Counted from the first letter of the stretch, positions 3,964 to 19,291 are shown. The stretch: DNA of 64,000 nucleotides from Burkholderiales bacterium (GCA_036381055.1 DASVDO010000017.1:20025-84024), one strand, 5' to 3'. Notes: generated from the letters alone by a model not told the origin. Translations and numbers: made by a program.

Positions 3964-4647
3964 CTAGAAGCGGTACGCGAGACCGAGGGTGGCGTAGCTT
4001 GCGGAGCGCTGCTCGGCGAGCGGGCTGCGCATCGCGTGGTCGGTGAGGCGCCGGCGTTCGACGCTGCCGACCAGGACCCAGTGGCGCGCGAGATCGAAGG
4101 AGGCGAGCGCGCCCACGCTGCCGTAGAGCACACCGCTTTGCCTCACGTCGTAGTAGGCGCGGTAGTAGTCCTGGTTGGCGAAGGTGAGCTGCGTGAACAC
4201 GCCGGCGAGCAGGCCGTGGCCCTGATAGACGCCGGCCGTCAGGCGCAGGTCGACCTGCAGGCCGCGCTCGGTGTCGAGGTGCTGGCGCACGCGCAGCAGC
4301 AGGTCGAGCGGCATCGGGCCGAGCCGGCCGTCCCACTCGGCATGCGCGCCGAGCGACGCGCCGGGATCGCGGTCGCGCGGGCCCTGCTCGTAGGCGAGCT
4401 GCGCGCCGATCACGGTGCCCTCGCCGATCCTCAAGCGCGCGCCGCCTTCGAGCATGCCCTGCGTGGTGCGCAGGAACCACGGCTCGCCGTAGTAGCGCAG
4501 CACCGGCACGAGATCGGTCTCGCGCTCGGAAAAGCCGTCGAACTCGGGCCGGCTGCGCACGCCGGCGCCGAACAGGATATCGCCCTGCGCGCAGGCCTCG
4601 CCCGCGCAGAGGAGCGCTAGCGAAAACGCGACTGCGCTAAGGCGCAT
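3964..4647 (-). CDS. MipA/OmpV family outer-membrane protein
   Basis: Signal peptide, RPEFDGFSE...VP, YYRAYYDV, C-terminal aromatic residue (AYRF). Confidence 0.8.
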   Translation of the reverse strand: MRLSAVAFSLALLCAGEACAQGDILFGAGVRSRPEFDGFSERETDLVPVLRYYGEPWFLRTTQGMLEGGARLRIGEGTVIGAQLAYEQGPRDRDPGASLGAHAEWDGRLGPMPLDLLLRVRQHLDTERGLQVDLRLTAGVYQGHGLLAGVFTQLTFANQDYYRAYYDVRQSGVLYGSVGALASFDLARHWVLVGSVERRRLTDHAMRSPLAEQRSASYATLGLAYRF

Positions 4648-15031: not shown

Positions 15032-15034
<3 letters not shown>

Positions 15035-15055
15035 TTCGGGGACGGAGCCCGAACT
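15032..15055 (+). repeat. REP-like hairpin repeat, left end of module 1
   Basis: TAATTCGGGGACGGAGCCCGAACT; internal hairpin TTCGGG/CCCGAA; exact reverse complement of 15457-15480; begins with ettA stop TAA. Confidence 0.9.
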
Positions 15056-15456: not shown

Positions 15457-15480
15457 AGTTCGGGCTCCGTCCCCGAATTA
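15457..15480 (-). repeat. REP-like hairpin repeat, right end of module 1
   Basis: AGTTCGGGCTCCGTCCCCGAATTA, perfect 24-bp inverse of 15032-15055; contains the cls stop TAA. Confidence 0.9.
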
Positions 15481-16887
15481 GAGGTAGGGGGCGAAGAGGC
15501 GCGCGACGCCGTCGCGCAGGCGCACGGGAAGGCTGCGCTGGGTGTCGTCGGCGAGGGTGTAGCGGCGGGCGCCGGCGATGCGCGCCTGCACCAGGCCCTC
15601 GAGATGCGCGCCGAGCTCGACGCTGTAGCACTCGACGTCGAGCTCGAAGTTGAGCCGCAGGCTGCGCGCGTCCCAGTTCGCCGAGCCGAGCAGCGTCCAG
15701 GCGCCGTCGACCACCATCAGCTTGGAATGGTCGAACGGGCCCGGCCGCAGCCAGACGCGGCAGCCGCGCTCGAGCACCTGCCAGATCTGGCCGAACGCCG
15801 CCCAGTGCACGTGCGGCAGGTCGCTCTTCTCGGGCAGCACGATGTCGACCTCGACGCCGCGCAGCGCCGCCGCGTCGAGCGCGGTGATCAGCGACTGGTC
15901 GGGCAGGAAGTAGGGCGTCATGATCTTCACGGAGCGCTGCGCGGCGCTCAGGCCGCCGATGATCACCCAGCGCAGGCGCTCGAAGCTCTCGTCGGGGCCC
16001 GCCTCGATGCCGCGCGCCAGGATCTCGCCCGCCGGCGCGAGCCGCGGGAACCACTTCTCGCCGCGCAGCGCCACCCCGGTGGTGAAGTGCCAGTCGTCGG
16101 CGAACACTTCCATGAGCTGCGCGAGCACCGGGCCGCGCAGGCGGAAATGCAGGTCGCGGTAGGCTTCCTCCGGGGCCTCGGGCCGCCAGTAGCGGCAGTC
16201 GACGTTGATGCCGCCGGTGAACCCTTCGACGCCGTCGACCACCAGAATCTTGCGATGGTTGCGCAAATTGAGCGCGTGCAGCCGCGCCGGCAGGAGCGGC
16301 GGATTGAACACCGCCACGTCGACCCCGGCGCGGCGCAGCGGCTTCACCGCGCTCGAGCGGGAAAAGCGCGCGTCGACATCGTCGATCAGCACGTGCACCT
16401 CGGCGCCGCGCCGCGCCGCCGCGGCGAGCGCCTCGACGAACTGCGCGCCGACGCCGTCGCCGTCGAAGATGTACGACGACATGGCGATCGAGCGCTGCGC
16501 GCGCCCGATCGCCTCGAGCATCGCCGGGAAGGCGTGCGCGCCGTCGATCAACGCCTCGACCTGGTTGCCGGGCGTGAGCGGGCGCCCCACCACCTGGCCC
16601 ACCAGGCGCGCGAGCGGCGTGAAGTGCCTGCCCGGCTCGCTCGACGGGAACTGCGCCTCGGTGCGATGGCGCACCATGCGGCGGCGCAGCCGCGTGGCGC
16701 GGCGCTCCACGCGGTTGACGCCGATGGTGAGATAGAGCAGCGCGCCGATCGCCGGCAGCAGCCAGACGACCGCGAGCCACAGGGTGGCCGAGCGGCTTTC
16801 GCGCTTGTAGAGCACGGCGTGCGCCGAAGCGACCACCGCGGCGACGAGCACGGCCGCCGCGAAGGCCAGGTCGACGACATCGCGCAT
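15478..16887 (-). CDS. cls: Cardiolipin synthase (phospholipase D family)
   Basis: N-terminal PLDc_N TM hairpin (WLAVVWLLPAIG); two HKD motifs NHRKILVVD and DHSKLMVVD. Confidence 0.9.
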   Translation of the reverse strand: MRDVVDLAFAAAVLVAAVVASAHAVLYKRESRSATLWLAVVWLLPAIGALLYLTIGVNRVERRATRLRRRMVRHRTEAQFPSSEPGRHFTPLARLVGQVVGRPLTPGNQVEALIDGAHAFPAMLEAIGRAQRSIAMSSYIFDGDGVGAQFVEALAAAARRGAEVHVLIDDVDARFSRSSAVKPLRRAGVDVAVFNPPLLPARLHALNLRNHRKILVVDGVEGFTGGINVDCRYWRPEAPEEAYRDLHFRLRGPVLAQLMEVFADDWHFTTGVALRGEKWFPRLAPAGEILARGIEAGPDESFERLRWVIIGGLSAAQRSVKIMTPYFLPDQSLITALDAAALRGVEVDIVLPEKSDLPHVHWAAFGQIWQVLERGCRVWLRPGPFDHSKLMVVDGAWTLLGSANWDARSLRLNFELDVECYSVELGAHLEGLVQARIAGARRYTLADDTQRSLPVRLRDGVARLFAPYL

Positions 16888-16905
16888 GCAGGCGCGAGCA
16901 TGCCT

Positions 16906-16932
16906 GAACTCGGCGCGCCGCGGCGGGTCTTG
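16906..16932 (+). promoter_or_regulatory. Possible sigmaE/AlgU-type promoter
   Basis: GAACTC-N16-TCTTG, an imperfect match to GAACTT-N16-TCTnA, 5 nt before the GTG start. Confidence 0.25.
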
Positions 16933-16937
16933 TTTAC

Positions 16938-17975
16938 GTGCGCGCCATCACCCTGCAGCCGCGCAGCGCCGGCTCGCTGCGCCTGGAAGACATCCCCGAG
17001 CCCGCGGGCGCTGGCAGCCTGCGCGTTCGGGGGCTCGCGGTGGGCGTGTGCGGCACCGACCGCGAGCTGATCGAAGGCGAGCACGGCGAGGCGCCGGCCG
17101 GCCGCAGCCGCCTGGTGATCGGGCACGAGTCGCTCGGCCGGGTGCTGGAAGCGCCGGCCGGGAGCGGCTTCTCGCCGGGCGACATGGTGGTCGGCGTGGT
17201 GCGCCATCCCGACCCGGTGCCGTGCGCGAGCTGCGCGCTCGGCGAATGGGACATGTGCCGCAACGGCCTGTACACCGAGCGCGGCATCAAGCAGGCCGAC
17301 GGCTTCTGCGCCGAGGTGTGGACCACGGCGCCCGGGTTCGCGGTGCGCGTGAGCGGCTCGCTCGGCCTCGCCGCCGTGCTGCTCGAGCCGGCGAGCGTGC
17401 TCGCCAAGGCCTGGGCCCATGTCGACAGCATCGCCGCGCGCACCGCGTGGCGCCCGCGGCGCGCGCTCGTCACCGGCGCCGGGCCGGTCGGGCTGCTCGC
17501 CGCGCTGCTCGGCACGCAGCGCGGCCTGGAGGTGCACGTCTACGACCGCCACGACGCCGGCCCCAAGCCGCGCCTCGTACGCGCCCTCGGCGCGCGCTAC
17601 CACACGGAGTTCCCGAGCCTCGAGTTCGACGTCGCCCTGGAATGCACCGGCGCGGCGAAGGTGGTGCGCGACGCCGTCCTGTCGGCCGCGCCGGGCGGCA
17701 TCGTCTGCCTCACCGGCCTGGGCGGCGTGAAGCACCGGGCGACGTTCGATGCCGCGACGCTCAACGACGCGCTGGTCATGGAGAATCGCGTCGTGTTCGG
17801 CAGCGTCAACGCCAACCTGCGCCACTACCGCGCCGCCGCCGAGGCGCTCGCCGCGGCCGACCGCGCCTGGCTCGACGGTCTGATCACACGCAAGGTGCCG
17901 CTCGCACGCTGGCGCGAAGCTTACGAGAAGCGTCCCGACGACGTGAAGGCGGTGCTGGTCTTCGACGAATCATGA
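16938..17975 (+). CDS. Zn-dependent glucose 1-dehydrogenase-like (MDR family)
   Basis: GVCGTD, GHESLG, CASC...DMC structural Zn, GAGPVG, GSVNANLRHY. Confidence 0.85.
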   Translation: MRAITLQPRSAGSLRLEDIPEPAGAGSLRVRGLAVGVCGTDRELIEGEHGEAPAGRSRLVIGHESLGRVLEAPAGSGFSPGDMVVGVVRHPDPVPCASCALGEWDMCRNGLYTERGIKQADGFCAEVWTTAPGFAVRVSGSLGLAAVLLEPASVLAKAWAHVDSIAARTAWRPRRALVTGAGPVGLLAALLGTQRGLEVHVYDRHDAGPKPRLVRALGARYHTEFPSLEFDVALECTGAAKVVRDAVLSAAPGGIVCLTGLGGVKHRATFDAATLNDALVMENRVVFGSVNANLRHYRAAAEALAAADRAWLDGLITRKVPLARWREAYEKRPDDVKAVLVFDES

Positions 17976-18292
17976 GCGTCGCGTATGCGGTGAAGGAGCC
18001 GAAGCGCGCCGAAGTGGACGCGCTCGCCGGCCCGGCGCTTCTCGAGTTCGGCAGTCCGGGGTGCGGCTATTGCCGTCGCGCAGAACCGCTGATCGACGCA
18101 GCGATGGCTCGACATCCCCGAGTACGTCACCTCAGGATCGCCGACGCGAGCGGCCGGCGCCTGGGCCGCTCGTTCGGCGTCAAGCTGTGGCCGACGCTGG
18201 TTTTCCTGGCCGACGGCCGCGAGGCGGCGCGCCTGGTTCGCCCGACCGACGCCGGCGCGATCGCCGAATTGCTCGCTACAATCGACCCCTGA
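17972..18292 (+). CDS. Thioredoxin family protein
   Basis: ATGA overlap; CGYC active site; VKLWPTLVF cis-Pro motif. Confidence 0.85.
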   Translation: MSVAYAVKEPKRAEVDALAGPALLEFGSPGCGYCRRAEPLIDAAMARHPRVRHLRIADASGRRLGRSFGVKLWPTLVFLADGREAARLVRPTDAGAIAELLATIDP

Positions 18293-18294
18293 CC

Positions 18295-18531
18295 ATGGAC
18301 ATCACCATCACCTACTGCGGCGCCTGAAACTACCTGCCTCGGGCTGCCAGTCTGGCGGCCACACTTAAGGAGGCGCTCGGCGTCGAGCCGCGGCTCGTCA
18401 GGGGCGGGGGCGGCATCTTCGACGTCTCGGTGGACGGCGCGCTCCTCTTCTCCAAGCATCGCGACGGCGCCTTCCCCGCCGAGGAGGCGGTGGTGGCGCG
18501 GCTCAGGGAAAAGGCGGGCAGGCAAGGCTAG
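18295..18531 (+). CDS. SelW/SelT/SelH (Rdx family) selenoprotein, UGA at codon 11 read as Sec
   Basis: MDITITYCGA-U-NYLPRAASLAA...GGGGIFDVSVDG.LLFSK..DG.FP; the frame continues past TGA (18325-18327) with an intact Rdx fold to TAG 18531. Confidence 0.9.
18342..18360 (+). promoter_or_regulatory. Bacterial SECIS element
   Basis: GGCUGCCA-GUC-UGGCGGCC hairpin starting 14 nt after UGA; apical CAGUCUG resembles the fdhF-type SECIS apex. Confidence 0.7.
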
Positions 18532-18722
18532 CGGGGCGACGTCGCGCGGTACTGCGCTTCCAGCAGCCCGGCGAGATCGACGCCCATGAAGCGCGTGCCC
18601 GGCTTGAATCGGGCGCCCGGCGCCACCTGGATGCGACCGCTTTCGAGATAGGTTTCCGCCGGCTCGACGCAAACCCACGTCCCGTCGGGCTGGCGCACGA
18701 AGTCTTTTATGAACTCGCCCAT
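18528..18722 (-). CDS. Small hypothetical protein (64 aa)
   Basis: ATG start, plausible codon use, converges on the Rdx gene with a 4-nt overlap. Confidence 0.6.
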   Translation of the reverse strand: MGEFIKDFVRQPDGTWVCVEPAETYLESGRIQVAPGARFKPGTRFMGVDLAGLLEAQYRATSPR

Positions 18723-18752
18723 GGCGCGGTCCGTGAGGGCGCGGTCCGTGAG
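18723..18752. repeat. 15-bp tandem duplication
   Basis: GGCGCGGTCCGTGAG x2, directly upstream of the 18722 ATG. Confidence 0.85.
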
Positions 18753-18804
18753 CGGGGCGGAGGATCGATACGGAGATGGCGGCTTTCAAGCCCCGTTTCA
18801 AGCC

Positions 18805-18832
18805 CTTGAAAGGGGGCGCGCCGACCCCAGAT
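18805..18832 (+). promoter_or_regulatory. Sigma32 (RpoH) promoter of hsp20
   Basis: CTTGAAA-N13-CCCCAGAT matches the RpoH consensus, upstream of a small heat-shock gene. Confidence 0.75.
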
Positions 18833-18868
18833 CGGACGTCGAACAAACCTTGCAATGGAGGCTACGCT

Positions 18869-19291
18869 ATGAATGAACTCGTCCGCTGGGATCCGTTCAA
18901 GGCGATCGCCCCCTTCGAGAGCCTTTTCGACGTTCCGAGCCTGCTGCGGCCGATGCGCTCCGTGATCTCCGCCGGCCCGCGCATGGACGTGGCGGACTAC
19001 GACGACGCCTACGAGCTCGCGGTGGAGCTGCCGGGCGTGAAGAAGGAAGCGATCCAGGTGAGCGTGCACGAGAACCGCGTCACCGTGTCGGCCGAGCTGC
19101 CGGCGCCGCAGGACGAAGGCAACGGCCAGTGGCTGCTGCGCGAGCGCGACTACGGCAAGTTCTCGCGCACCCTCTCGCTGCCCGAGGCGGTCGACGAGGA
19201 AGCTTCGCAGGCGCGCTACAGTGACGGGGTGTTGACCCTCACCCTGCGCAAGAAGGCCGCGAGCCGGCAGAAGCGCCTCACGATCCACTGA
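18869..19291 (+). CDS. Hsp20/alpha-crystallin small heat-shock protein
   Basis: GGAGG SD; RWDPF, MDV, ELPGVKKE, ERDYGKFSRTLSLP, ARYSDGVLTLTL. Confidence 0.95.
   Translation: MNELVRWDPFKAIAPFESLFDVPSLLRPMRSVISAGPRMDVADYDDAYELAVELPGVKKEAIQVSVHENRVTVSAELPAPQDEGNGQWLLRERDYGKFSRTLSLPEAVDEEASQARYSDGVLTLTLRKKAASRQKRLTIH

Follow-up and report, generated by a model that had tools for sequence, protein, structure and literature searches.

A probable SelW-like selenoprotein gene, missed by ORF calling, next to a Patrx2-like thioredoxin gene in a Burkholderiales bacterium

A short gene in the draft genome of a Burkholderiales bacterium very probably encodes a selenoprotein of the bacterial SelW-like (Rdx, SelT/SelW/SelH) family, its eleventh codon, UGA, being decoded as selenocysteine (Sec). 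The gene lies on contig C17, within a stretch of 64,000 nt (GCA_036381055.1, DASVDO010000017.1:20025-84024; hereafter the window, whose numbering is used wherever no contig is named), in close succession to a dehydrogenase gene and a thioredoxin gene (Table 1). Bacterial SelW-like proteins are a well-described selenoprotein family, to which the gene adds one member; all testable defining features of a SelW-like selenoprotein gene are present, with the exception of selD in the draft assembly, which comprises 3.10 Mb in 103 contigs at an estimated completeness of 98.2%.

Table 1. Coordinates of the genes and elements discussed, in the window or on other contigs (C) of the same assembly
Feature	Position	Strand	Basis or score
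Zn-dependent medium-chain dehydrogenase, archaeal glucose-1-dehydrogenase type, 345 aa	16938..17975	+	PF16912 Glu_dehyd_C, E = 8.6e-61; ADH_N
Patrx2-like atypical thioredoxin, predicted cytoplasmic, 106 aa; C31-G-Y-C34 at 18062-18073	17972..18292	+	PF00085, E = 6.6e-9
Putative SelW-like / Rdx-family selenoprotein gene	18295..18531	+	Readthrough translation; PF10262; TIGR02174; homology to 2FA8, 2OKA, 2OBK
Predicted Rdx redox motif Cys8-Gly-Ala-Sec11 (TGC GGC GCC TGA)	18316..18327	+	From sequence; UGA at 18325-18327
Putative bacterial SECIS-type hairpin within the coding region, 8-bp stem, apical loop GUC	18342..18360	+	Fold and covariation
selA	C83:2549-3859		576 bits, above cut-off
selB	C83:3874-5652		425 bits, above cut-off
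tRNA-Sec (selC)	C83:5693-5789		ARAGORN, anticodon tca; Rfam RF01852 at 69.7 bits, above cut-off
AhpD-like/CMD gene, 182 aa, AAINGCPFUVD	TGA at C26:92511-92513	minus	PF02627 spans TGA, E = 7.6e-11
Glutaredoxin-DinB_2 fusion, 255 aa, PGUSSC (UxxC)	C42, ATG at 4273, TGA at C42:4312-4314	plus	PF00462, residues 7-64, spans TGA, E = 2.3e-13

An Rdx-family gene interrupted by UGA

The reading frame begins at the ATG at 18295 with ATG GAC ATC ACC ATC ACC TAC TGC GGC GCC TGA AAC TAC and closes with TAG at 18529-18531. When TGA is read as Sec, the translation gives 78 residues, MDITITYCGAUNYLPRAASLAATLKEALGVEPRLVRGGGGIFDVSVDGALLFSKHRDGAFPAEEAVVARLREKAGRQG, with the motif YCGA-U-NY. ORF finders miss the gene because codon 11 is UGA, and the sole frame given at the locus in the standard ORF list is one of 88 aa (18061..18327) that ends at the TGA. 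A preliminary description of this DNA, made from the sequence alone, had pointed to a hidden 78-aa Rdx/SelW gene absent from the ORF track, and readthrough translation together with profile searches confirms it.

With Cys put in place of Sec, and with the curated Pfam and NCBIfam cut-offs, residues 3-71 match PF10262 (Rdx) at E = 6.6e-17 (61.9 bits, cut-off 22.6), and TIGR02174 (CXXU_selWTH, ‘SelT/SelW/SelH family protein’) is matched at 52.7 bits (cut-off 34.2). The PF10262 alignment crosses the TGA, in agreement with the earlier statement that the fold carries on past this codon. The U of the CxxU near the N-terminus aligns with the Cys of Cys-form homologs (YCTQCNW in genome G041, and PDB 2FA8/2OKA), and solved Rdx-fold proteins (2FA8, 2OKA, 2OBK and others) can be aligned from end to end, CGAU falling opposite their CxxC, a likeness that supports a thioredoxin-like fold for the predicted product.

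Conservation of the UGA codon and of a SECIS-type hairpin

TGA occupies the same codon in all 15 close Rdx homologs, which represent at least seven phyla. A six-frame search of 60 related genomes recovered seven Rdx homologs with a single TGA, at this codon; these same-genus or same-order sequences are 37-63% identical to the protein described here and form two sub-clades, YCxxUNY and YCAAUGY. Scanning one genome per species added eight homologs with the same TGA, in MAGs whose records are labelled as Acidobacteria, Gammaproteobacteria (two), Deinococcus, Limisphaerales, Eisenbacteria, Desulfobacteraceae and Campylobacteraceae. The alignment of Cys and Sec forms that had been proposed as a check accordingly has TGA in these 15 homologs, and Cys (YCTQCNW) replaces Sec in more distant Rdx homologs and in the PDB chains.

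The hairpin GGCUGCCA-GUC-UGGCGGCC begins exactly 14 nt past the TGA, and its coordinates, 18342-18360, bear out the SECIS-like structure previously noted at this distance. Folded as a lone sequence, it is no more stable than its shuffles (z = -0.67), a statistic that is uninformative because the DNA is 71% GC. When the 72 nt around the TGA of all 16 genes are aligned, without gaps, 87.5% of cells in the 8-bp helix are paired, against 25-45% when the partner is slid by 1-3 columns; compensatory (double) changes occur at five of the eight pairs, the loop opens with an invariant G and U, and none of 500 shuffles matched the observed covariation score. Compensatory changes in the consensus structure had also appeared in an earlier version of the alignment with eight sequences. 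A scan of the whole window with Rfam gave no family reaching its gathering score. The conserved, covarying hairpin looks like a bacterial SECIS inside the coding region, and SelB binding is predicted for it. As in the E. coli fdhF-type SECIS, the stem-loop follows directly on the UGA within the ORF and has a conserved G and U in its apical loop, ∼23-27 nt from the UGA; it differs from that element in sequence, in its shorter stem and in having no evident bulged U.

As a SECIS, the hairpin would recruit SelB with Sec-tRNA(Sec), leading to insertion of Sec at the UGA and hence to a small protein of thioredoxin-like fold that has a CxxU redox centre at its start and would cycle between selenol/thiol and selenylsulfide forms. 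Most likely, this protein serves as a thiol/selenol oxidoreductase of the cytoplasm; to our knowledge, no function has been established for bacterial SelW-like proteins.

Genomic context

The dehydrogenase upstream has its best solved relatives in the archaeal glucose dehydrogenases 2B5W (E = 2.4e-41) and 2CD9, and the thioredoxin aligns over its full length with Patrx2 (PDB 2LRC, E = 7.9e-33), with which it shares Cys residues at positions 31 and 34 in a PDI-like CG[H/Y]C motif, the His of the Pseudomonas aeruginosa protein being replaced by Tyr. As the preliminary description had it, the CGYC thioredoxin gene overlaps the glucose-dehydrogenase-like (GDH-like) gene and precedes the Rdx gene: the dehydrogenase stop overlaps the thioredoxin start in ATGA, and the TGA of the thioredoxin gene is separated by 2 nt from the Rdx ATG. 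Co-transcription of the three genes is likely from this packing, and translational coupling of the Rdx gene to the gene upstream is probable, because the gap is only 2 nt and no Shine-Dalgarno sequence is found ahead of the Rdx ATG. Neither a sigma-70 promoter nor an intrinsic terminator was found in a scan of 16600-19000.

The order dehydrogenase-thioredoxin-Rdx is a peculiarity of this genome and not a conserved module. Thioredoxin orthologs (49-70% identity, active sites CG[H/Y/F/W]C) occur in ∼40 of 301 genomes sampled from the order, with no GDH-like or Rdx gene within 1.5 kb at any of the 29 loci retrieved; a thioredoxin or GDH neighbour is likewise found at none of the 15 Rdx homologs, and clustering of conserved neighbours around the thioredoxin orthologs and Rdx homologs produced shadow ORFs only. 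The Rdx gene had been described as the end of a redox operon, of which the tight three-gene packing stands and the recurrence of the arrangement in other genomes does not.

The same description read the three genes as a relay module, in which NAD(P)H generated by the dehydrogenase would serve the thioredoxin and, through it, the Sec protein in a dedicated electron transfer. This reading is unlikely and the comparative data leave it unsupported: the order is unique to this genome (0/29 and 0/15 loci, as above), and no NAD(P)H-dependent (flavoprotein) disulfide reductase is present within the three-gene unit, although the three genes all encode redox proteins and their one-strand packing implies co-transcription. 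The thioredoxin would itself be an awkward intermediate, since its homolog Patrx2 (PA2694), a cytoplasmic thioredoxin with a PDI-like CGHC motif, is oxidizing (-170 mV) and has limited disulfide reductase and good isomerase activity (PMC12830090). The lower GC3 of the thioredoxin gene (0.80, against 0.89-0.96 in its neighbours) further hints at a separate history.

Three other features of the region were recorded. The codon score of the thioredoxin gene is 0.11 per codon, with 0.35-0.68 in the flanking genes, which together with its GC3 may point to a separate origin or to weak expression. On the minus strand, an ORF of 64 aa (18528-18722) converges on the Rdx gene, the two stop codons overlapping; its coding score is moderate (GC3 0.85), it matches no Pfam or NCBIfam model, and it is found near no thioredoxin ortholog. 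Further upstream, between ettA-like and cardiolipin-synthase-like genes, a perfect 24-nt inverted repeat, TAATTCGGGGACGGAGCCCGAACT, at 15032-15055 and 15457-15480 bounds ∼400 nt and looks like a MITE or REP-type element.

Selenocysteine machinery and other probable selenoprotein genes

The genes selA, selB and tRNA-Sec are contiguous and arranged head to tail (C83:2549-5789) on a contig whose composition is normal for the genome. The expectation that the genome should encode selABCD thus held for selA, selB and selC and failed for selD, which is not in the assembly. No match to TIGR00476 above cut-off was found in the assembly, its AIRS-family matches being ThiL and PurM alone; tblastn of the assembly with a congener's SelD returned ThiL and nothing else; and inspection in this genome of both sites that hold selD in congeners did not find it. 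In most congeners inspected, selD adjoins selU (ybbB), the gene for tRNA 2-selenouridine synthase, which is intact here at C8:2666-3739. Its neighbour in this genome is a transglutaminase-like gene (C8:1356-2678, minus strand), with contiguous sequence across, and the end of this gene abuts the start of selU so that no room is left for selD there.

Two more TGA-containing genes were singled out, beyond ordinary same-frame gene junctions, by a scan for in-frame TGAs with coding signal on both sides, based on a codon log-odds score trained on 597 long ORFs. In the AhpD-like/CMD gene, a hairpin, CUCCGUC-CGUGU-GACGGAG, begins 11 nt downstream of the TGA; in the glutaredoxin-DinB_2 fusion gene (Grx-DinB), which sits just downstream of two tRNA-like matches, the hairpin CGAAAGA-GUU-UCUUUCG begins 16 nt downstream of the UGA (Table 1). 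Both hairpins have G-U in the loop. AhpD-like proteins and glutaredoxins are known bacterial selenoprotein families (Table 1 of PMC1794560). A search of the genome for a Sec-type formate dehydrogenase (TIGR01553) gave no match above cut-off and no internal stops. The genome would therewith contain at least three selenoprotein genes (SelW-like, AhpD-like and Grx-DinB), all predicted to be of thiol-oxidoreductase type, a count that is a lower bound because the scan is heuristic and biased towards Cys-adjacent UGA, and one that argues for a working Sec system.

SelD is the selenophosphate synthetase, indispensable for Sec-tRNA synthesis. An assembly gap is the likeliest cause of its absence here: since the genes that depend on selenophosphate are all intact, selD is most likely to be sought in sequence that was not assembled or binned, and a gene missing from a draft of 103 contigs need not be missing from the organism. 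Among the congeners, 21 of the 24 searched have selD, including every well-assembled one, and the three without it are merely 60-81% complete.

Recent loss of selD would turn the gene into a young relic, its UGA terminating translation after 10 residues in a Sec trait that is starting to decay. We consider this improbable. The absence of the gene from an assembly of 98.2% completeness would fit such a loss, as would the contiguous sequence across the place where congeners have the selD-selU neighbourhood, but no decay is visible: selA, selB, tRNA-Sec, selU and the three TGA-containing genes are intact, with open frames and preserved hairpins. Against it, too, are the presence of selD in every well-assembled congener and the unremarkable nature of a single missing gene in a draft of this kind. 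More improbable still is a true absence of selD from an organism that keeps selA, selB, tRNA-Sec and selU along with three or more intact selenoprotein genes, or, in a milder version, a Sec trait sustained by small thiol-oxidoreductase-type selenoproteins alone (SelW-like, AhpD-like, Grx-DinB), neither FdhA nor SelD being among the selenoproteins; were selD truly absent, activated selenium would have a source other than SelD.

A nonsense pseudogene, in which a chance mutation to TGA had inactivated an earlier CxxC Rdx gene and for which the Cys-form Rdx homologs of the same order might plead, is effectively excluded by the occurrence of the same TGA in 15 independent homologs across phyla and by the covarying hairpin at a fixed distance from it, the frame past the TGA also being intact and conserved at the protein level. 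The preliminary description had named a genome with no Sec machinery and no Cys/TGA conservation as the sign of such a pseudogene, and the genome clearly departs from it on both counts, with selA, selB and tRNA-Sec present and the TGA/Cys position conserved.

Distribution within the genus

Of the 37 genomes of the genus, this one counted, eight have selB, seven have a TGA-containing Rdx gene and six have both (Fisher p = 8e-5), the one genome with the TGA-containing Rdx gene and no selB being a draft of 470 contigs. In congener G015 (contig C19:89000-101000), the TGA-containing Rdx gene precedes selA, tRNA-Sec and selB by ∼1.1 kb on the same strand. Across the genus, Sec decoding is accessory and patchily distributed, and it travels with the SelW-like gene. 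The near-universal presence of selD in the genus, mostly beside selU, points to a widespread selenouridine trait.

Comparison with known selenoprotein families

SelW-like proteins are among the 25 bacterial selenoprotein families considered by Zhang et al. in 2006 (PMC1794560) and constitute a classical family (PMC1794560; PMC1088965, PMC2398784). With the other members of the family the protein described here shares its length (∼75 aa), the CxxU at the N-terminal beta-strand/loop and the in-frame stem-loop after the UGA; SelW-like genes stand alone in most genomes, whereas this one is packed with genes for a Patrx2-like thioredoxin and a GDH-like dehydrogenase. Each selenoproteome examined in the 2006 survey was found to include FdhA or SelD with Sec (PMC1794560), in contrast to the present genome, which is without a Sec-type FdhA and, in the assembly, without selD of either Sec or Cys type.

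Cys-form Rdx proteins of solved structure (Atu0228, 2FA8; 2OKA; 2OBK; 2P0G) align with the whole length of the protein (E = 1e-10 to 1e-4) and differ in having Cys for Sec, in being ∼25 residues longer and in lacking a SECIS. The best-scoring NCBIfam model is NF041051, SelTWH_Campy (75 bits, E = 4e-21), and the Campylobacteraceae homolog begins MDITITYCGxU, as does the protein here; the score is below the equivalog cut-off of 88, which places the protein outside that narrow subfamily.

Significance

The annotation of this genome is to be corrected in that standard ORF calling hides the Rdx gene and at least two further predicted selenoprotein genes. The selenoproteome found here consists of small thiol-oxidoreductase-type proteins only, with no Sec-type FdhA found, and the case is mildly unusual in combining a genome-specific three-gene unit, no Sec-type FdhA and a selD that is not in the draft. 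The comparative data give no grounds to expect a conserved pathway for the dehydrogenase-thioredoxin-Rdx unit; the adjacency of the Rdx gene to that of a PDI-like thioredoxin nevertheless offers a cheap means of searching for a physiological partner of bacterial SelW-like proteins.
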